Virus record (IMG/VR): IMGVR_UViG_3300009151_000034
Coordinates: 32,001-96,000 of that record
DNA: 64,000 nt
Strand: one strand, 5' to 3'
Source: a virus
The notes beneath the pieces were generated by a model. It was not told where the DNA came from. It did no database searches and saw only the letters and a list, made by a program, of their open reading frames with translations. Position 1 is the first letter of the stretch; every line of letters begins with the position of its first letter. The position numbers and the translations under genes were made by a program. Positions 12,788 through 61,180 of this stretch are shown in pieces.

Positions 12788-13912
12788 TCACACTACCTTC
12801 AGAAGAATTGTATCTTCATTAATACGCTGTTGAATATTATCTGTCTTTTTTAACTCTGTCAAGAGTTTTGTTGCTGCTCTTTTTCCGCCATTTAGGACGG
12901 TAGCAATGTGATCAGCTACCTTACGGCCACCACGAACTGTCATGCTCTTATCTTCGTCATATTTAGTGATGGCAGTGCGATAAACATCCAAGCCACCACG
13001 ATCCAGAGCATAAAAGACTGTCAGTGTCTTATATTTAGTATTTAAGACCCAAAGCTCTTGTGCTCCAATAATCTTCTCGGGTTTGATCGAGGCTACCTTG
13101 AATTCCTTGCTTTCAGTAGCAGGGATAAGAAATTTTAGCTTCTTGTCAACACTAACCGTCTTAGGCTTCCTAGGTTCGCGCATCTTCTTCGTATTAGACG
13201 CAAACCGTTCACAATCAGTCAAAATACTCACATAGAATTTAGCGCGGGCCTTTTTGTTATCATTAGAAAGATTTGCATAACCTTCTACGAGTTGAGCATC
13301 ACAAGACCGTGAAAGAACTTCGGCAGCTTCGTTTGCAATGGGCTGATAAAATGCAGCAATCTTAGAAACCAGAAGAGGCGGAATTTCCTTAGTCTGAAGC
13401 CATTCATACATAGACAAGGTATAACCATTCGCATCGATGGCTTCTTCAAATTCACCAATGAAATCAGAAGCCTTATCACGAATACGATCTTGGATATTAA
13501 CCGCCTTGTCTTCTAGGGCAGCCACATCTTTCCGAAAAGTCAAAGCCTCTGTAACTTTTTCGTTTGCGAAAACCATGCTGCTAGGACCAAGATTAGCACC
13601 ACGGGAAATCATACGAAATATCCAAGCAGCCTGATCAGGAACTCGATTATCTGGAACACTCTTCATCTGTTTCGCCTCTGTGGTTCGGCCTGTATTTGTC
13701 AGATATGTTTCTAGATAATCACGAGCATTTTCGGTATTGCACATATAGCTATACCAAGTCATATTTTTCATACGAGTTAGATTGTCAATAGGATCGTAGG
13801 TGAAAGTCGGTTCATCTCCCATATACTTCTGGTTGATCAGTTGTTGTTCAGTCTTTGTGGGACGAACCTTCTTAACTTTTTTAGCAGTAGCAATTAAGAG
13901 ACGATTGGCCAT
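12788..13912 (-). CDS. Conserved T4-like hypothetical protein
   Basis: YMGDEP..L.EGY..SIKPEKIIGAQELWVLNTKYK..RINEDTILLKV. Confidence 0.8.
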   Translation of the reverse strand: MANRLLIATAKKVKKVRPTKTEQQLINQKYMGDEPTFTYDPIDNLTRMKNMTWYSYMCNTENARDYLETYLTNTGRTTEAKQMKSVPDNRVPDQAAWIFRMISRGANLGPSSMVFANEKVTEALTFRKDVAALEDKAVNIQDRIRDKASDFIGEFEEAIDANGYTLSMYEWLQTKEIPPLLVSKIAAFYQPIANEAAEVLSRSCDAQLVEGYANLSNDNKKARAKFYVSILTDCERFASNTKKMREPRKPKTVSVDKKLKFLIPATESKEFKVASIKPEKIIGAQELWVLNTKYKTLTVFYALDRGGLDVYRTAITKYDEDKSMTVRGGRKVADHIATVLNGGKRAATKLLTELKKTDNIQQRINEDTILLKVV

Positions 13913-22596: not shown

Positions 22597-23009
22597 GCTG
22601 GTAGTAATCCTGGAAACCCCTTGTTGATAAGTTCGCGTGTAATATTCGGATAAGGTAATTTTTTATCTTTAACAGCCAAAAGAAGTTTTGCATCGGCTTC
22701 AGAAACAGTTTCAAGTAATTCCACGAAAAGTGCTTCACGGCGAAGTTGTTTTAATGTTTGATGACCGTTTTGCACAAAAAGATATAATTTACGAGTTTGA
22801 GTGTATAATGATCCTTCCTGATCCACAAGAGTATTTGGTTTATATGGTGGCGAACCTTCTGGTAAGAGCCAAACTATATTTGGATCAAATGCACCACGGA
22901 TCATTGATTCTAGTGGCGCGCTAAAATTTTGTTTCAAAACCATAATACGTTCATCATCTGTCTGCATCTTCGAAGCTTTTTCAAAGATTTCCGCCAACCC
23001 TAATTTCAT
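22593..23009 (-). CDS. Conserved T4-like protein (DUF6433-like)
   Basis: FDPNIVWLLPEGSPPY..RREALF..LLE..DAKLL..KDK. Confidence 0.75.
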   Translation of the reverse strand: MKLGLAEIFEKASKMQTDDERIMVLKQNFSAPLESMIRGAFDPNIVWLLPEGSPPYKPNTLVDQEGSLYTQTRKLYLFVQNGHQTLKQLRREALFVELLETVSEADAKLLLAVKDKKLPYPNITRELINKGFPGLLPA

Positions 23010-23395
23010 TATACGAAGTCTCCAATACTTTCGGTTAAATTCTTAAGTTTATGATCCATAAAATACGTCAACAAATTCTTGGCTTTTTTGCCTTCTTGTT
23101 CCGTATAACTATTTACTACTTCATTATATATGTTTTCAGGAATGTTAGCAAGATCAATTAGCTGTTCATTTCTTTTGTAATTTCGCAACATGGTTTCATT
23201 ACAAAACAATTTAGGTTCAGAATGTTTGAGCCACTCCTCTAGTTTTTTCTTGAAAAGTGGTTTTTGTCTTTCTCCAATAACTAAACAATTATCGTTTGAT
23301 AAAATATTAGGAATGCCATCGCTAGTATCACCAGATATGATATGCTCAATCCGATATTTTTCAATTTCTTCTCGTGTCATATATTTTTTTATCAT
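23009..23395 (-). CDS. rnh: RNase H/5' nuclease, C-terminal half of split gene
   Basis: EHIISGDTSDGIPNILS..RN..LIDL..IP. Confidence 0.85.
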   Translation of the reverse strand: MIKKYMTREEIEKYRIEHIISGDTSDGIPNILSNDNCLVIGERQKPLFKKKLEEWLKHSEPKLFCNETMLRNYKRNEQLIDLANIPENIYNEVVNSYTEQEGKKAKNLLTYFMDHKLKNLTESIGDFV

Positions 23396-23480: not shown

Positions 23481-23981
23481 TCAATCTTTCCTTTGGATTA
23501 AAACATCCTTTACTGGTTGATATATTGCAACATTATCATAGGCCAGTAATTGTATAAAATCGTGATCCCCAGAAAGTATAAGAATTTTTTCCTTGGAAGA
23601 ATACTCCATTACCAATGACGCAATAACATCATCTGCCTCTGCATGTTCAATATCAATAACTGGATATGGAAAATTGACCATGAGTTCATTACGAAGTTTA
23701 TTGAAACATTCGAAAATCATTTTCCAATCTAGTTCAGAGGCTTCTCGGTTCTTTTTACGATTTGCCTTATAATACGGAAAAACTTCTTTACGCCAGTATC
23801 GTTTGCCATCACATGCAATAACAAGCTCACCATATTCTTTTTTAAATTTTGAACGATATGAACGAATCGAATTCAAAACCATATGGCGAATCATATTTTC
23901 TTCAACCTTGGCGTTTTTATGATTGCCAAGTTGAACCATAAGATTTGATAACATAACTTGTGATAAGTCCACAATGATCAT
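23481..23981 (-). CDS. rnh: RNase H/5' nuclease, N-terminal half of split gene
   Basis: MIIVD..YWRK..FPYYKANR..EADD..SGDHDFIQL. Confidence 0.88.
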   Translation of the reverse strand: MIIVDLSQVMLSNLMVQLGNHKNAKVEENMIRHMVLNSIRSYRSKFKKEYGELVIACDGKRYWRKEVFPYYKANRKKNREASELDWKMIFECFNKLRNELMVNFPYPVIDIEHAEADDVIASLVMEYSSKEKILILSGDHDFIQLLAYDNVAIYQPVKDVLIQRKD

Positions 23982-24000: not shown

Positions 24001-24372
24001 TCATCCTCCGTTTTCTGATGTTACGACAATTTTTACTAAATCTGATAAAGTTAATATACCTTCATCATCTTCTTCAAATATATTTTTACACATTTCTTGA
24101 AATGGATGGTGTATTCCATAACTTTTTAATAATAAAGACCTCAAAGCTTCGATTACAAATGCACCATCTTTAATATCTCCATCATCTTCGGCAGGCTCAA
24201 ATCCTGCTATGGAAAGTTGATCAAAAAACTTAGGCATAATCGTTTCGATAGTTTCTTGAATATGGAACTGTTTGACTAGTTCCATATTATCTTCAATTTC
24301 TTCTATCGTTTGAGGACTTTGTGGCTTTGGGTGTTTTTTAGGAAAACTAACTACATTATTAGAGTATGCCAT
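24001..24372 (-). CDS. Conserved T4-like hypothetical protein
   Basis: NNVVSFP..HPFQ motif. Confidence 0.7.
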   Translation of the reverse strand: MAYSNNVVSFPKKHPKPQSPQTIEEIEDNMELVKQFHIQETIETIMPKFFDQLSIAGFEPAEDDGDIKDGAFVIEALRSLLLKSYGIHHPFQEMCKNIFEEDDEGILTLSDLVKIVVTSENGG

Positions 24373-24396: not shown

Positions 24397-25404
24397 TTAT
24401 TTGTCAAAATAGATAATTTCACTGCCAGTTCCCACAAAATTAAAATCATAAATTTTACAACTTGGAGATTTTTTAAGGATGTTTTGAGCAAGTTTTTCTC
24501 TGTCTGAAACTGGAACATAAAAGATAAAAAACCCACCACCACCTGCGCCCAAAAGTTTACCACCAATAGCACCAGACATTATTGCCGTTTCGTAAATGCC
24601 ATCAAAATAATCATTACTAATTTCTTTGGTAACACGTTTTTTATCGTGCCATGCCATATCTAGTAAATTTCCAAAACTATCCACATCACCACGTTCGATA
24701 AAGTCAACAGCCTTTATTGCTTTGTCTCTACCATTAGCAACTAAATTAAACTTATCTTCTTGTAACATGGCTGCCTTTTGATTTTTGAGAATTTCATTAG
24801 CAGATCGGCCAACACCACTATAAACAAGTAAAAGATTTTCGTTAAGCTTTTGAATTGTCTCGGAAGTTATTTTTGGTTTGATAACAGTCACAGATTCATC
24901 GGAATGAAATTTTAAATAATTGAAACCCCCATAAGCAGCAGCATATTGGTCTTGTTTACCGATAGGATATTGGCAACGGTCAATTTCAATTTTACATGCA
25001 GCAGAAGCTAAAATTTCAGAATATTTTATTGGAGTTTTTTTACGATTTTCATTTTCATAAATCATCGTATTAATAAGACCAACGGTGAATGCAGAAGATG
25101 ATCCTAAACCAGTTCCTCTAGCAAGAACATCTGAAATTGAAGCCGTAGTGTATTTTTCACTTGTAACATATTCTTTAAATGTTTCACGAGTAATATCATG
25201 ACGCATTTTATCAATTTCGTCAACAATTTCTATGCTGTCATAAATGTTCCTGAAACCAGAATGCGGAACATTATGAGTCATTACATAAATGTATTTATCA
25301 ATCGTGGCAGAAAAAGCGGCGCCAGAAGACTTCTGATAAAAAGAAGACATATCACTACCACCACTAAAAAAACTTATCCTCAAAGGGGTCTTAGAAATAA
25401 TCAT
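24397..25404 (-). CDS. hddA: GHMP kinase, D-glycero-alpha-D-manno-heptose-7-phosphate kinase-like
   Basis: TPLRISF.GGSD..GTGLGSSS..GKQDQYAAAYGG..GGKLLGAGGGG. Confidence 0.85.
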   Translation of the reverse strand: MIISKTPLRISFFSGGSDMSSFYQKSSGAAFSATIDKYIYVMTHNVPHSGFRNIYDSIEIVDEIDKMRHDITRETFKEYVTSEKYTTASISDVLARGTGLGSSSAFTVGLINTMIYENENRKKTPIKYSEILASAACKIEIDRCQYPIGKQDQYAAAYGGFNYLKFHSDESVTVIKPKITSETIQKLNENLLLVYSGVGRSANEILKNQKAAMLQEDKFNLVANGRDKAIKAVDFIERGDVDSFGNLLDMAWHDKKRVTKEISNDYFDGIYETAIMSGAIGGKLLGAGGGGFFIFYVPVSDREKLAQNILKKSPSCKIYDFNFVGTGSEIIYFDK

Positions 25405-26414
25405 TACAAAGTCCTGTATATAAAAGTTTCGGTTTGTTTTTTACGACTTTCTAGTGTTGGATATTGTGCCAAAAGTTGTTTAAGCATCATTTCCCATTGA
25501 TTTTTAATACGATTTATATTATAACGAGAATCGACAAAAATTTTATTGAAATCAATCATATTTTTGTGAAGATTATTTTTATACATTTGAATTGCTGCAT
25601 CCAAGTGGTTTGTAAAAATATTTACATGAACATTATTATTTTGGCTACCATTATACATCATATTAAGACCACCTGATGTTTCTGGCAACGCACCAAAGTT
25701 TGGATGCACACAAATCAAACCAGCAGACATAGCTTCAAGCATAGCGCGACAGGAAGTTTCTAGCCAAATCGAAGGATATGCAAAAATATGAGATTTATTT
25801 AAATGTGTTTTTAAATCGATATTTGGAACAAATCCGTAATATGTAATTTGTGGATGGTTTTTACAACGATCAAAAAGTTTTTCGAATGGAGCATCAGCAG
25901 TATTCCATCCATAAATTTTGAAACTTGAAAACACATCAAGATGAATTTCTGGATGCTTCTTTGCTAATGCTTCAAAAGCAGGAACAAGAATTTCCAAACC
26001 ACGTTGAGGGGTTGATGTGTAAACTAAACGAATTTTACCATCTCCTTCAGTATACCGCAAAAATGGATCAGCGGGTTCGATACCAGATTCTAAAATGATT
26101 GATTTTTCATCATAAGGAAGCCCGTGAATGAGTTGATATCGACCATATTGCCAATTAGAAACAAATACAAATTTATGAATATCTTTAAGAAATGATGGGT
26201 CTTTGAATTTATTGGATTCTGGGTCTTCGGCCAAATCATGTGCCCAAAAAATTCTAATCTTGTCTTGTTCTAATGTTCTTGGTCTAGAACAAATAATTTG
26301 AAAGTTATCAAGTAGTTCTGGGTCCAGCATTGTTGTTAGTTTGCGTTTTGCAATTTCAGTCCCACCGAATGCATTTTGAGAAATTTCGTTCTCTTCAAAA
26401 CCTGCCATAATCAA
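25404..26414 (-). CDS. Glycosyltransferase (GT-B, family 4-like)
   Basis: GGTE..YTSTPQRGL..YPSIWLETSC..EAMSAG. Confidence 0.88.
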   Translation of the reverse strand: MIMAGFEENEISQNAFGGTEIAKRKLTTMLDPELLDNFQIICSRPRTLEQDKIRIFWAHDLAEDPESNKFKDPSFLKDIHKFVFVSNWQYGRYQLIHGLPYDEKSIILESGIEPADPFLRYTEGDGKIRLVYTSTPQRGLEILVPAFEALAKKHPEIHLDVFSSFKIYGWNTADAPFEKLFDRCKNHPQITYYGFVPNIDLKTHLNKSHIFAYPSIWLETSCRAMLEAMSAGLICVHPNFGALPETSGGLNMMYNGSQNNNVHVNIFTNHLDAAIQMYKNNLHKNMIDFNKIFVDSRYNINRIKNQWEMMLKQLLAQYPTLESRKKQTETFIYRTL

Positions 26415-26422
26415 AACAATCC

Positions 26423-27145
26423 TTATAGAGTATAATTTGATTTTTGTGCATCATTAAAGAACATGCACACAGTTTCATAAGAATAATCATAAAGAGGCTT
26501 TCCGATTATAGAAAGTTTCTTGATGATATCTGGGGTCATCGTAATAATATCACATCCCACATTTTGAGCCTGAACAAAATTATATACTTCTCTGGTTGAA
26601 GCCCAAAGAAATTCTACATTTTTATCAGCGGGAGTTTTCGTATTAATACAATATTTAACTGAATATTCTGGATCAACACCAGCATCAGCAATTCGACCAG
26701 CAAAAATTGAGATAATAGAAGGTGTATTTGTATCAAGATGATCTAGAATCGAAGAAGTTTGAAGTGCAGTAAAAACAGCAGTAACATTGCAACGAATTCC
26801 TTTTTTGCTGATTTTATTAATCAAATCATATGTAGGAACTCGCTTAGTATTCATCACAGGAATTTTAACATAAATTGGATAACCAAATCTTGTTTCCAAA
26901 CCAGCAAGAATTTCAGCCTGTCGAATGATTTCATCATCTTCATCAGCGAATACTTCAAGACTGATGTTTGTATCAGGCCGAATTTCTTTTAGCTTTGGAA
27001 TAATTCTTTCGCAAAAATCCATGTAATTTGTAATACCAGCCGATCTCATAAGAGAAGGATTGGTGGTAAATCCTTTCACTATCGGATTGGCTGCTGCATT
27101 TAAAATTCCATCATAATCTGCACCATCAGCAAAAATTTTAGTCAT
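26423..27145 (-). CDS. tal: Transaldolase
   Basis: GFTTNPS..YVKIP..NVTAVF..SIFAGRIAD..LWASTRE. Confidence 0.9.
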   Translation of the reverse strand: MTKIFADGADYDGILNAAANPIVKGFTTNPSLMRSAGITNYMDFCERIIPKLKEIRPDTNISLEVFADEDDEIIRQAEILAGLETRFGYPIYVKIPVMNTKRVPTYDLINKISKKGIRCNVTAVFTALQTSSILDHLDTNTPSIISIFAGRIADAGVDPEYSVKYCINTKTPADKNVEFLWASTREVYNFVQAQNVGCDIITMTPDIIKKLSIIGKPLYDYSYETVCMFFNDAQKSNYTL

Positions 27146-27671
27146 TATTTAATTCCTTTATTAGATTCACGGCAGTTAAAATATCTTGCGCGAAAAATGT
27201 TGGTTGAACGTGTTTATATTCATCTGGAGAATAATATTCTTTGCCAATGAAAATAGTGGAAAGATTACTTTTGGCACCACAAACTATATCTTTCCATCTA
27301 TCGCCAATCATATAACTTACACTTGGATGTATATCATAATCTTCAATTAAAGTCAATACCATTCCGTTATTTGGTTTGTAGTTAAAAGATTTTCGATCTA
27401 ATGCACAAATGATATCATCTACGCCCATATCTAAAATTATCTTAGTCATAATTTCGAGCGTTTCATAATTCATTTTTCCATCAAGATGATCTGGTTGATT
27501 GGTAACTACAAATACCATATACCCCATTTTCTTTAGGGTGTCAATCGATTCTTCAGCGTAAGGAAGAATTTCAAATTCTTCAAGAGACCAGGGTGCTGTA
27601 GAAATTCCGGTTTTTCTTGGGACTAACTTATTTATAACACCGTCACGATCAAGAAAAACTGCTTTTACCAT
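27138..27671 (-). CDS. gmhB: Heptose-1,7-bisphosphate phosphatase (HAD IIIA)
   Basis: FLDRDGVIN..VTNQ..KP..GM..MIGDR..D. Confidence 0.82.
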   Translation of the reverse strand: MVKAVFLDRDGVINKLVPRKTGISTAPWSLEEFEILPYAEESIDTLKKMGYMVFVVTNQPDHLDGKMNYETLEIMTKIILDMGVDDIICALDRKSFNYKPNNGMVLTLIEDYDIHPSVSYMIGDRWKDIVCGAKSNLSTIFIGKEYYSPDEYKHVQPTFFAQDILTAVNLIKELNND

Positions 27672-28249
27672 TTTGTCTTCATAATTTGAAGATCAGGATG
27701 AGAAACCACACAATGCCAAACTACTGCTTGGAATGCTTCACTATGTGGTGTAACTCGGGAAGAATTTGGCATAGGGACGACAATAGCAACATCACTGTTT
27801 TGTGCCGCATAACCATCAAATTTTCCTACGATGGATAGAATAGCAGAACCCATTTCTTTAGCATGTTCTATGGCCTTAATCAAATTTACAGAAACATTTT
27901 TTTCTTTGTTCCCACCACCAACCGAAAGAATAATGATGGTATCTTCAACTTCTAGTTTTGATACTTTAAGCCATTCAACAAATATAGATTCAAAACCATC
28001 ATCGTTCGCTCTAGCCGTAAGTTCCGAAACATTATCCGTTGGAGCATAAGTTTCTATACCGCATAACTTACGAAGATCATTGACCATATGACTAGCATTT
28101 GCAGCAGAGCCACCAATACCAAGAACGAAAACTCGGTTGCCATTTTTTTGAGCCACGCGAAGATAATTAACAAATTCTTGGATATCATTTTTGTTAATTT
28201 GTTTAGCGATTTCAATTACTTCTTCTAAGTATGTTGAGATGTGTTGCAT
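27665..28249 (-). CDS. gmhA: Phosphoheptose isomerase (SIS domain)
   Basis: GIGGSAANASH..LTARAND..E..Q..H. Confidence 0.85.
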   Translation of the reverse strand: MQHISTYLEEVIEIAKQINKNDIQEFVNYLRVAQKNGNRVFVLGIGGSAANASHMVNDLRKLCGIETYAPTDNVSELTARANDDGFESIFVEWLKVSKLEVEDTIIILSVGGGNKEKNVSVNLIKAIEHAKEMGSAILSIVGKFDGYAAQNSDVAIVVPMPNSSRVTPHSEAFQAVVWHCVVSHPDLQIMKTKW

Positions 28250-28647
28250 AATCTATTCCTTAATTCAGTGCTGCTATATGAATGCAGACGGTCAATATAA
28301 ATGATTTTGATACCAAGTTCTTGGCAAATATCTTCACCAGTTACTTGCGTTCCTTTATATTCACTGCCCAAGTAACGAGTATCAATTTTTGTTGTAGCTA
28401 AAATATTTTCCAAATCACGTTCAGTGTCATATGGAATGATTCGGTCAATGTAATGACATGCATTCAACTGAACATAACGTTCGAATGTAGTTTGCATTGG
28501 TTTGTTTTTTGTTTCGGGGCGGTCAATCGTTGGATCAGTGTGAAGACCTGTAATCAAATAATCACAGGTCTGTTTGCACCTTTGCAACAAAATAACATGC
28601 CCAGGATGAAATAAATCAAAAGCCCCGCATGTAAATCCAATAATCAT
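28225..28647 (-). CDS. HIGH-motif nucleotidyltransferase (TagD/HldC-like)
   Basis: GAFDLFHPGH..ER..R.H.YSST. Confidence 0.85.
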   Translation of the reverse strand: MIIGFTCGAFDLFHPGHVILLQRCKQTCDYLITGLHTDPTIDRPETKNKPMQTTFERYVQLNACHYIDRIIPYDTERDLENILATTKIDTRYLGSEYKGTQVTGEDICQELGIKIIYIDRLHSYSSTELRNRLCNTSQHT

Positions 28648-29069: not shown

Positions 29070-29738
29070 TTATTCTGGAATAAAAACTGTGTCAAGTCGA
29101 GTTATTTGTTTGTAACTTTTATAACCAATTGATTTCATTAGTTCTTTAACTTCTTTAACTTTTTTGTAGTCACATTCTAATATAATCATTGGCTTATGTT
29201 TTTCGATGGTTTTTACTGCTCCTTTAATTGCTTTTGGTTCATATCCCTCAAGATCAAATTGAATAAGTTTGACATTTTGGAATGAAAAACTATCCAAAGG
29301 AACAACCGGGATAGTCTGTTCAAAAACATCACCCTCAAAAATTTCAATTTGATTCATGCCACAATTTCCAGGAACTATTGCATTGATTGTTCCTATATTA
29401 TGGGTTTCTCCAAGACCACAATTAAATTTGATGATTCCTGGAATTTGACAATTATTTACCAAACAAAAAAAACTAAGAGGGTCTGGTTCAAAAGTATATA
29501 CATTTTTAAAAAAACTAGTATATAAAAGTGGATACATACCACAATTACCACCAGCCTGAATTACTACTCCATCTTTAATAGGAAATTCTTCACGTAAAAA
29601 TGGTTCGATTTGATGTAACCAATCTGAAGCAATGATACCAAATGTATCAGTATCATCCTTTGGCCACACCCAATGTGTAATATTATGAATTGGTGCATTT
29701 AATATTACACATTGATTGGATAAATTATTGATATTCAT
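29070..29738 (-). CDS. FkbM-family methyltransferase
   Basis: IQAGGNCG..FEPD..LD..DLEGYE..GA..I..KP.I.LE. Confidence 0.85.
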   Translation of the reverse strand: MNINNLSNQCVILNAPIHNITHWVWPKDDTDTFGIIASDWLHQIEPFLREEFPIKDGVVIQAGGNCGMYPLLYTSFFKNVYTFEPDPLSFFCLVNNCQIPGIIKFNCGLGETHNIGTINAIVPGNCGMNQIEIFEGDVFEQTIPVVPLDSFSFQNVKLIQFDLEGYEPKAIKGAVKTIEKHKPMIILECDYKKVKEVKELMKSIGYKSYKQITRLDTVFIPE

Positions 29739-30013: not shown

Positions 30014-30283
30014 TTAATTTCCTTCGACAAGAAGTTTTTGAGACGTTTGTAGTTGCTCATTAAGTGCAACAGCATTCGCAAATTCAGTATATCCGCCAAT
30101 CATGAATCCGTCAACTACTACTACAGGATAAGTCAAAGCAGTTGGAAATTTTTCTTTGAGACCTTCCCGAGTGAAATCCTCGTTTAAACGATTTTCGGTA
30201 TAAGAAAGTTTCTTGCGTTCTAAAAATTCTTTTAGATTCGTGCAAAAATCGCAATTGGTTTTGGTATAAATTTCGATATGCAT
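30014..30283 (-). CDS. nrdC: Glutaredoxin
   Basis: CDFC, TYP, IGGYTE. Confidence 0.9.
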   Translation of the reverse strand: MHIEIYTKTNCDFCTNLKEFLERKKLSYTENRLNEDFTREGLKEKFPTALTYPVVVVDGFMIGGYTEFANAVALNEQLQTSQKLLVEGN

Positions 30284-60124: not shown

Positions 60125-61180
60125 TTACGATTCCTTACAATATTTAAGCCAAATCTTTCCGGTTTTGTTCGTGTATCGTGTTAAAGAAAATTGATTCGCC
60201 AAAACATTCAACTGAGGATATTTATAAGAATATTCAAGTTTCTTTACGATATCCTTAGTGCTAGTTGGAACAGCAGTTGTTCCCCAGGCTGCCCAAGGTA
60301 ATTCGTTAGATGAAACAACAGGAACCCCTTGGCTAATCATATCTGCCGAAACGATATTAAAAGTTTCGCTAAAACTAACTTGCAGGCCCATATCCATTTG
60401 ACCACAACATTTAAGAAACTCTTCATGAGGCAACCACCCATAATCAAACATTCTATGTCCTCGATTGTATAGATGTTGGAATAATCCACGAAGATTATGT
60501 AATATAGGTTCACCTTTCATTTCAATTCGGCCTGTATTGACATAAAAATGTAGTTTCTTATCAATATTTTCTGCGAATTGAATAGCTGCATGAGCCTGAA
60601 TCAAATGATTTTTTAAAGGTCTTACTGCACCAAAACATCCAATGTCAATATATTCTTTATCTCGATTGAATGATTTACTTTTAAAATATTGTGGATAATA
60701 ATTCGGAAGATAAATTACCCGCTCAGAAGTTTTTGCATCTGTCCAGTAATTCTTTCGTTTCAAAAAAGAAGCAATTTCTTCATAGAACCTTGGAGAATTA
60801 CATGCAATAACAATATTTTTGAAACCAGAATAATCTCCAATCCAATCCATTGCCATACCTTCACCCGCCATAAAAGGCATTTCGCTATGGAGTCGAATAA
60901 TCCATGTGACTTTAGGATGAAGTTTTTCTAGGACTGCAAATTTTGAAGGAACTACCCACAAAGCTTCAATAATAACATGAGTGGGGTTAAATTTTGTGAC
61001 TTCTCTATCGATATCGTTATTATCAACCACCACAACCAATTTACTTAATACGCCATTTTCTATAAGGTTTCTGTGGACGAATGACGCAGAATTATAAAGA
61101 CCCGTGCTGAGACCAATATGAGAGTGGACAACAGCATTATAGTCTTCGCGGCGTTTTAAAATAAACAAGACTTTTTTCAT
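60125..61180 (-). CDS. Glycosyltransferase (GT-B)
   Basis: FGAVRPLKN..SFSETFNIV.AD..GVPVV. Confidence 0.8.
   Translation of the reverse strand: MKKVLFILKRREDYNAVVHSHIGLSTGLYNSASFVHRNLIENGVLSKLVVVVDNNDIDREVTKFNPTHVIIEALWVVPSKFAVLEKLHPKVTWIIRLHSEMPFMAGEGMAMDWIGDYSGFKNIVIACNSPRFYEEIASFLKRKNYWTDAKTSERVIYLPNYYPQYFKSKSFNRDKEYIDIGCFGAVRPLKNHLIQAHAAIQFAENIDKKLHFYVNTGRIEMKGEPILHNLRGLFQHLYNRGHRMFDYGWLPHEEFLKCCGQMDMGLQVSFSETFNIVSADMISQGVPVVSSNELPWAAWGTTAVPTSTKDIVKKLEYSYKYPQLNVLANQFSLTRYTNKTGKIWLKYCKES

Follow-up and report, generated by a model that had tools for sequence, protein, structure and literature searches.

INTRODUCTION

Two described routes lead to nucleotide-activated heptose, the HddA/HddC-type pathway and the HldE/HldC pathway, and we compare with both of them a cassette of six genes found at positions 24397-28647 of a 64,000-nucleotide stretch of viral DNA (the window). 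The window comprises bases 32001-96000 of the 149,097-bp IMG/VR virus record IMGVR_UViG_3300009151_000034, which has direct terminal repeats, is rated 100% complete and comes from an uncultured freshwater T4-like phage. With the HddA/HddC-type pathway the cassette has the first three enzyme families in common (SIS for the isomerase, GHMP for the 1-kinase and HAD-IIIA for the 7-phosphatase), and its closest structures are found there as well. It differs from that pathway in carrying an HxGH-fold enzyme instead of HddC, in its built-in transaldolase and in its carrier, a lytic T4-like phage. The likeness to the HldE/HldC pathway lies in the nucleotidyltransferase (NT), which shares its fold and the HxGH motif with HldC and with domain II of HldE; however, the phage kinase belongs to the GHMP family (alpha series) and not to the PfkB family, and the phage glycosyltransferase (GT) is a retaining GT4 enzyme and not an inverting GT9 heptosyltransferase. 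In the C. jejuni capsule loci, as in variants of the phage cassette described below, tailoring enzymes for nucleoside diphosphate (NDP)-heptose are added.

That phages carry heptose genes is already known from annotations in the literature. Virus-encoded heptose biosynthetic enzymes and nucleotidyltransferases have been reported (PMC11573728), and among cultured T4-like phages Cr30, Synechococcus phage SynMITS9220M01 and pelagimyophages have annotated heptose or glycan clusters (PMC7378029, PMC7029224). The heptose-type genes of cyanophages and pelagiphages were treated there, without experiment, as auxiliary genes related to lipopolysaccharide (LPS). A further group of comparable systems, the DNA sugar-hypermodification clusters, resembles the cassette in that the phage makes a rare sugar with the help of an isomerase, a kinase, a HAD phosphatase and a nucleotidyltransferase, and transfers it with a GT-B enzyme. 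The cluster for heptosyl-5-hydroxymethylcytosine (heptosyl-5hmC) likewise needs an enzyme of the cytidylyltransferase family for its heptose adduct. The Shewanella Thanatos pentose paper does not mention heptose, an isomerase, a cytidylyltransferase, a hydroxymethylase or a kinase.

RESULTS

A six-gene cassette for a putative heptose donor and its transfer

The cassette is listed here in its 5'-3' order, with protein lengths in amino acids (aa) and family matches:

28225-28647, minus strand: HxGH (cytidylyltransferase-fold) nucleotidyltransferase, NT; 140 aa; Pfam CTP_transf_like, E 5.8e-13
27665-28249, minus strand: GmhA-like sedoheptulose-7-phosphate isomerase; 194 aa; Pfam SIS_2
27138-27671, minus strand: GmhB-like HAD-IIIA heptose-1,7-bisphosphate 7-phosphatase; 177 aa; NCBIfam PRK06769, PRK08942 and GmhB
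26423-27145, minus strand: Staphylococcus-type transaldolase, predicted supplier of sedoheptulose-7-phosphate; 240 aa; TAL_FSA, E 1.5e-34
25404-26414, minus strand: retaining-type GT-B (GT4) glycosyltransferase; 336 aa, TTG start; Glycos_transf_1 (PF00534, PF13692)
24397-25404, minus strand: HddA/WcbL-type GHMP sugar-1-kinase, predicted 1-kinase of the alpha-anomer series for the 7-phosphate of D-glycero-D-manno-heptose; 335 aa; GHMP N and C domains

A preliminary description of the window had pointed to six linked heptose and GT genes; they are the same minus-strand open reading frames (ORFs), and Pfam and NCBIfam confirmed their families. The genes are tightly packed and translationally coupled, with overlaps of 25 nucleotides (nt) between NT and GmhA, 7 nt between GmhA and GmhB, 8 nt between GmhB and the transaldolase and 1 nt between the GT and the kinase, and with a gap of 8 nt between the transaldolase and the GT. 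On the evidence of sequence comparison, the balance tips somewhat towards reading the six genes as a self-contained module that would both make a sugar donor and transfer the sugar, with an acceptor that is most probably not DNA.

From the observed gene content, motifs, fold, conservation and genome absences we infer the enzymatic steps, the anomer, the nucleotide and the acceptor. The transaldolase would boost the supply of sedoheptulose-7-phosphate, which GmhA would convert to the 7-phosphate of D-glycero-D-manno-heptose. The HddA/WcbL-type kinase would phosphorylate C1 in the alpha-anomeric configuration, GmhB would strip the 7-phosphate, and the NT, replacing the missing HddC, would couple the heptose-1-phosphate to a nucleotide. 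The retaining GT4 enzyme would then add one alpha-linked heptose to the acceptor, where a neighbouring FkbM-family enzyme may O-methylate it. The order transaldolase, GmhA, HddA, GmhB had been put forward before, and it agrees with the homology of the proteins, their conserved catalytic motifs and the strong co-conservation of the genes.

The individual matches are as follows. The best NCBIfam model for the kinase is HddA NF049969 (E 5e-45; 154 bits, against an equivalog cut-off of 600), and a PDB sequence search gave WcbL (4usm, E 3.5e-37) and HddA (4n3o, E 1.3e-34) as its best solved structures. Sugar-1-kinases of this HddA/WcbL type yield the alpha-1-phosphate (PMC10680097). For GmhA, four gmhA models are the best in NCBIfam (55.6 bits, against a cut-off of 209), the best 13 structure matches are all phosphoheptose isomerases, with C. 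jejuni GmhA at the top, followed by two of the paralogue DiaA, and the equivalents of E. coli H61, Q172 and H180 are retained. The DRDGxxN, TNQ, KP and GDxxxD motifs of GmhB align with those of E. coli GmhB while the Zn loop is missing, and only GmhB structures were matched in the PDB sequence search. The transaldolase comes near equivalog level (TIGR02134, 253 bits against a cut-off of 282). No PfkB kinase (PF00294, the type of HldA and of domain I of HldE) was matched in the complete 149-kb genome.

The cassette is conserved as a unit in related phages

Searches with the kinase and the GT gave a related set of 70 IMG/VR loci, in which many loci without the full cassette end at a contig edge. 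Of these 70, 36 contain all six genes in unchanged order, with amino-acid identities of 45-72%. In these 36 loci the NT is the first gene of the cassette, the transaldolase always sits between gmhB and the GT, and the cassette as a whole is bounded by a SpeD-like gene with glutaredoxin and, at the opposite end, by a small ORF with rnh. The NT, the GT and the kinase stay together even in reduced variant cassettes, and variants add an epimerase/dehydratase, a short-chain dehydrogenase/reductase (SDR), a GFO oxidoreductase or methyltransferases, i.e. enzymes for tailoring NDP-sugars. Matches came only from searches at the protein level; when the cassette was compared by blastn with 50,697 phage records, none was found. 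In metagenomes the NT has more than 1000 clusters (E <= 1e-5) and the GT more than 5400 (E <= 1e-10).

One 144-kb phage contig (L059:4223-9522) carries an HddA-like kinase (40% identity) together with a fusion of phosphoenolpyruvate (PEP) mutase and cytidylyltransferase, methyltransferases and an epimerase, and this looks like a cluster for a phosphonate-decorated glycan.

We compared the rates of nonsynonymous and synonymous substitution (dN/dS) between the window and its closest relative, L001. The kinase has values of 0.0127/0.1275 and the C-terminal part of the GT has 0.070/0.728, so that both ratios are ~0.1, and by this sequence measure the GT is under purifying selection in this phage. 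The synonymous divergence itself is 0.13 in the kinase and 0.73 in the adjoining GT (window 24397-26414 versus L001:3-1597), a jump that points to a recombination breakpoint where GT and kinase meet and to a swapping of GT alleles between phages.

The GT is an old gene of a phage branch

The GT is the only clear glycosyltransferase in the genome, where we found no GT2 enzyme. Its AlphaFold2 model (predicted local distance difference test, pLDDT, 90.5) has the GT-B, two-Rossmann fold, and it aligns at Z 27-28 over ~290 residues to the retaining enzymes HepE, sucrose-phosphate synthase, PimA, MshA and BshA; this needed a fold search, as a phmmer search of the PDB sequences with the GT found no match. 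The E-x7-E motif (E218...E226) is invariant among 32 relatives. Because the genome has no other clear GT and no SDR epimerase, the product is probably a single D-glycero-D-manno-heptose residue. A retaining GT acting on an alpha donor would give an alpha-heptoside, and in this respect the predicted activities of kinase and GT are mutually consistent. The FkbM methyltransferase upstream of the cassette has no homologue in any of the 70 related loci; GT-FkbM fusions are present among the viral structural neighbours of the GT, and the enzyme may O-methylate the sugar.

Elsewhere in the window, a 351-aa ORF (60125-61180, minus strand) matches Glycos_transf_1 weakly, with a score of 13.7 bits that does not reach the cut-off, and at E <= 0.001 it has no Pfam family. 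A second, highly divergent glycosyltransferase might be encoded here.

Orthologues of the GT (37-44% identity, >90% coverage) are present in cultured phages, namely Cr30 (Caulobacter), phiM12, M7, M19 and N3 (Sinorhizobium), DLP6 (Stenotrophomonas) and phages of Rhizobium and Ochrobactrum. In Cr30, phiM12 and DLP6 the gene occupies the same slot beside glutaredoxin, and in Cr30 and phiM12 this slot runs from glutaredoxin to rnh, as it does here. The order in the slot of Cr30 is epimerase-GT-HddA-x-GmhA, and an NT of the same subfamily is found 2 kb past rnh; identities to Cr30 are 42% for the GT, 36% for the HddA-type kinase and 46% for the NT. Cr30 has no gmhB and no transaldolase, and it has the epimerase. 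Cr30 and DLP6 encode a Tet_JBP protein, and phiM12 does not. The GT is thus retained whether or not Tet/JBP is present, and whether or not there are heptose genes, which marks it as an old gene of this phage branch. The heptose genes, judged from these gene contents, would be accessories for donor supply around a GT that is conserved in the Cr30/phiM12/DLP6 lineage.

A 374-aa protein (phrog_11903) lies beside the GT/heptose module in phiM12 (gp314), Cr30 and L048; in the window it is found ~10 kb away, at 12788-13912 on the minus strand, near the tRNAs, gp59 and gp32. We considered it as a member of the module and rejected it: it has no Pfam family and no Atlas match, and its position probably reflects mere synteny of the replication region.

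The nucleotidyltransferase belongs to a third subfamily

The preliminary description had noted that HddC is absent from the window. This holds for the whole complete genome too, in which no HddC-type NTP_transferase (PF00483) was matched although all 14 of 14 reference genomes used as a control were positive. As neither an HddC-type NTP_transferase nor a PfkB kinase is present, the NT is the sole candidate activator in the genome.

The best NCBIfam model for the NT is rfaE_dom_II, at 76 bits against a cut-off of 181.5, and TagD TIGR01518 gives 59.5 bits against 165.4; ten other members of the clade score 60-81 bits and 49-75 bits, respectively. With a profile built from 28 phage members, TagD reaches 55 bits and B. 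pseudomallei HldC 45 bits. Since TagD and HldC have a common fold, a structural model of the NT would not tell them apart. The motifs of the family are HPGH and a C-terminal R-x-H-x-[YWFM]-S-S-[ST]-x-L-R, and at the position of this second signature TagD reads RTEGISTT and E. coli HldE reads FEDGCSTT. Broad use of NTPs has been linked, in the STTR5 class of enzymes, to a (F/L)xxGRSTT motif in which position 5 is Arg (PMC11573728). The phage NT lacks this motif; it reads R-L-H-S-Y-S-S-T, and position 5 is aromatic in nearly all aligned members of the family. These sequence features place the NT in a third subfamily, uncharacterised so far and distinct from both HldC and TagD.

Bacteria that encode relatives with ~50% identity are Sphingobacterium (where the genes form tandem pairs), Empedobacter, Tenacibaculum and Patescibacteria. 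The surroundings are polysaccharide loci with ManC, Gmd and Rml genes, Wzm/Wzt and UDP-glucose dehydrogenase, and what the subfamily does in bacteria appears to be uncharacterised. In Sphingobacterium (L107:7977-8921 and ~30 other loci) the two tandem paralogues have ManC, Gmd and a GT2 gene as neighbours. Genes for NDP-sugar dehydratases/epimerases directly follow the NT gene in Empedobacter and cyanophage S-B43. It is therefore quite likely, in our judgement, that the NT is a sugar-1-phosphate nucleotidyltransferase, and gene context makes it the candidate heptose-activating enzyme of this cassette. The earlier suggestion that a TagD/HldC-like enzyme stands in for HddC to give a donor such as CDP- or ADP-alpha-heptose is thus upheld, by homology and co-conservation, for the stand-in role; membership in a third subfamily does not point to CDP, ADP or any other nucleotide.

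Several observations weigh against a linear heptose pathway of this kind. Except for the transaldolase, all its proteins fall far short of the curated equivalog cut-offs, and on sequence criteria they are divergent members of their families, not orthologues by the NCBI standard. The catalytic E65 of GmhA is replaced by Asp in 11 of 11 phage sequences aligned. In pairwise comparison the best solved structures for the NT are ECT, TagD and HldC, to the first two of which it is closer than to HldC, and no heptose genes were found within 8 kb of the NT in its bacterial loci. We know of no cytidylyltransferase-fold enzyme that acts on an alpha-sugar-1-phosphate. Moreover, phiM12 and DLP6 have the GT and no heptose genes, so that the donor is not fixed for the GT family.

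Part of these data would be explained if the NT were a TagD-like cytidylyltransferase for glycerol-3-phosphate or another alcohol phosphate. In that case the six genes would not make up a single linear route to NDP-heptose; the product could be heptose-1-phosphate or a glycan bearing glycerol-phosphate, or the host could provide the activation. Automatic annotations do name the family TagD or glycerol-3-phosphate cytidylyltransferase, and both the pairwise structure matches to ECT and TagD and the heptose-free polysaccharide loci of the bacterial relatives fit this explanation. However, the TagD model reaches only the low scores given above and rfaE_dom_II scores higher in the phage members, the linkage of NT, GT and kinase persists in reduced variant cassettes, NDP-sugar dehydratase/epimerase genes come right after the NT in S-B43 and Empedobacter, and the genome has no other sugar-1-phosphate nucleotidyltransferase. 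We therefore regard a TagD-like role as improbable and retain the NT as the putative heptose-activating enzyme.

DNA is most probably not the acceptor

Which molecule would receive the heptose? The preliminary description had listed DNA first. In that case the GT would move heptose from the NDP donor onto a hydroxylated base, and the resulting heptosyl-hydroxymethylpyrimidine would block restriction or other nucleases. There are precedents with a shared logic: mono- and di-heptosyl-5hmC were formed in E. coli by a phage cluster that combines a HAD/APH kinase with a cytidylyltransferase and a GT-B enzyme (bioRxiv 10.1101/2023.12.21.572611), and a phage pathway for arabinosyl-cytosine has been described (PMC13326640). 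The position of the cassette among genes for replication and nucleotide metabolism is in line with a DNA acceptor, and so are the ~440-aa Tet_JBP proteins of Cr30, DLP6 and three of five large relatives, and a divergent ThyA-like gene in one complete relative (167 kb).

However, these known clusters depend on an enzyme that creates the acceptor base, either a ThyA homologue or a methyltransferase with TET. Reconstitution of heptosyl-5hmC required a methylase and TET (bioRxiv 10.1101/2023.12.21.572611), and phage arabinosylation of hydroxycytosine requires a ThyA homologue (PMC13326640). The cassette comes with no such enzyme. The complete genome has no ThyA-like protein, Tet_JBP protein, C5-methylase, member of two 2-oxoglutarate (2OG) oxygenase families or TGT/DpdA (PF00303, PF12851, PF00145, PF13640 and PF13759 were all negative), and tblastn with the Tet and ThyA-like proteins of the relatives was negative in it as well, though a flanking gene is present. 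The search of the rest of the genome for a dCMP/dUMP hydroxymethylase or hddC that had been proposed earlier likewise found neither. No C5-methylase is present in the five large relatives either.

The GT itself also argues against DNA. It is under purifying selection here without Tet, and it is kept in phiM12, which has no Tet. The GT-B enzymes of the DNA-hypermodification clusters resemble the T4 beta-glucosyltransferase and have a charged groove for DNA, whereas the GT family described here is acidic (pI 5.7-6.7; N-terminal domain pI 5.0). The T4 alpha- and beta-glucosyltransferases are not among the PDB or viral matches listed for the GT, an absence which by itself does not exclude activity on DNA. 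Cr30 and phiM12 are generalised transducing phages, which we also count against a DNA acceptor. With no enzyme for a hydroxylated base, an acidic GT and orthologues that are independent of Tet, DNA heptosylation is the least supported of the earlier proposals for this phage; we consider it very unlikely, and DNA is most probably not the acceptor here.

The Tet_JBP proteins of the relatives (L156:1276-2664, L157:1261-2589 and L158:868-2172; 434-462 aa) adjoin a MazG-like pyrophosphohydrolase, and Tet_JBP is absent from the present genome, from phiM12 and from the complete 167-kb relative. Since no C5-methylase accompanies them in the IMG/VR relatives, they may act on thymine or on a target other than DNA. 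The genes next to Tet/JBP in these relatives were inspected for similarity to the GT and to one another, and none was found. There is a slim chance that in the Tet/JBP relatives the GT is a DNA glycosyltransferase, which would use NDP-alpha-heptose to make a heptosyl-hydroxymethylpyrimidine resembling base J; in the phage described here, the same activity would need an unrecognised hydroxylase.

An envelope glycan or a protein as a possible acceptor

With DNA set aside, our best single guess, a tentative one, is that the heptose would be added to a glycoconjugate in the envelope of the infected cell, such as the LPS core, the capsule or an S-layer glycan. Motifs of the N-terminal (acceptor) domain of the GT are conserved across phages of very different hosts, at 30-40% identity compared to 45-51% for the donor domain. 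This fits poorly with an envelope glycan, and it is a further point against the module as we read it. Conservation of these motifs across hosts speaks for an acceptor that is itself conserved, be it a protein of the phage or a conserved structure of the envelope or core.

The acceptor may instead be a protein, with the GT O-heptosylating either a capsid, tail or fibre protein of the phage or some conserved protein of the host, on the model of the virus-encoded sugar pathways of mycobacteriophages and giant viruses. Such an acceptor would travel with the phage, as would be expected from a GT whose sequence, N-terminal motifs included, is common to phages of alphaproteobacteria, gammaproteobacteria and freshwater hosts, and the best 120 GT clusters listed are all on contigs of 170 kb or less, i.e. 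of phage size. The GT is a soluble, acidic enzyme, the protein O-glycosyltransferases GtfA and SdgB are among its structural neighbours, and glycosylation of virions has precedents in the literature. On the other hand, enzymes with small-molecule and lipid acceptors are equally found among these neighbours, the cassette lies in the replication region and not by the structural genes, it is not preceded by a T4-type late promoter, and no candidate acceptor protein was identified. We rank protein glycosylation second, as rather unlikely, and the remaining probability falls to some other small or soluble acceptor.

Genome context of the cassette

The T4-like gene set of the phage includes gp32, gp59, UvsX, a DnaB-like helicase, a split family-B-type polymerase, ribonucleotide reductase, ThyX (by which the phage makes dTMP), glutaredoxin, PhoH, a T4-type RNase H and tRNAs. 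The neighbours of the cassette are:

30014-30283, minus strand: glutaredoxin (nrdC-like), the upstream landmark of the syntenic slot; Glutaredoxin, E 5.7e-11
29070-29738, minus strand: FkbM-family methyltransferase; 222 aa; Methyltransf_21 / TIGR01444
28665-29054, minus strand: AdoMet-decarboxylase-like protein (SpeD/SpeH); 129 aa; AdoMet_dc, E 1e-19
24001-24372, minus strand: conserved acidic 123-aa ORF between the kinase and rnh, without a Pfam or NCBIfam family
23481-23981 (N part) and 23009-23395 (C part), minus strand: T4-type RNase H (rnh) in two ORFs, the downstream boundary of the locus; 5_3_exonuc_N and RNaseH_C

In most relatives the SpeD-like gene is located 5' of the NT, directly or within ~2 kb; second SpeD-like copies are found elsewhere in loci L002, L048, L064 and L065. 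On the other side, the cassette is not immediately upstream of rnh as had been described: the 123-aa ORF intervenes, and rnh itself is split. This ORF is kept in nearly all relatives, and it has a weak match to gp313 of phiM12, which has the same position. The two parts of rnh (166 aa and 128 aa) are separated by an 85-nt spacer rich in stop codons. L001, a 97%-identical relative, has a spacer of ~700 nt at the same site (L001:1990-3700), and in the more distant L056 and phiM12 rnh is a single ORF of 281 aa. The split looks like the scar of a mobile insertion.

Sites resembling late promoters (TATAAATA) are enriched in the window, with 17 copies compared to 6.3 expected, and several of them lie just 5' of ORFs (e.g. 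1242, 15171, 44122, 49235 and 61298), a distribution that fits T4-type late promoters. The only TATAAATA copy of the cassette is inside gmhB, and none was found as a T4-type late promoter 5' of it. Scans for sigma-70 promoters and terminators gave results at chance level only. Among public runs, at least half of the stretch was found in three freshwater metagenome DNA runs only, two of which may be its source, and no RNA run is listed. Phage-like contigs have been binned into various metagenome-assembled genomes (MAGs), which we do not count as reliable evidence for a host.

DISCUSSION

Although phage heptose genes as such have been annotated before, our search of the literature found no paper on the six-gene form with a transaldolase, none on an alpha-series kinase in combination with the third NT subfamily, and no report of an NDP-alpha-heptose donor made by an HxGH-fold enzyme; nor did we find the GT recognised as a conserved gene of the Cr30/phiM12/DLP6 branch. 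If the proposed pathway is confirmed, the combination of a cytidylyltransferase-fold enzyme with an alpha-series GHMP kinase would yield a new nucleotide-heptose and open a new branch of heptose biochemistry. The transaldolase of the cassette would then provide a concrete sink for a gene that has usually been read in cyanophages only as a booster of the pentose-phosphate pathway.

Conservation of the GT in the Cr30/phiM12/DLP6 branch means that the question can be tested in cultured pairs of phage and host. Should the acceptor be at the cell surface, the module would alter how infected cells appear to other phages; should it be the virion or the DNA, the module would be a new kind of phage self-decoration. 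Thousands of close relatives of the NT and the GT are present in metagenomes from freshwater and elsewhere, which makes the module a common trait of abundant T4-like phages.

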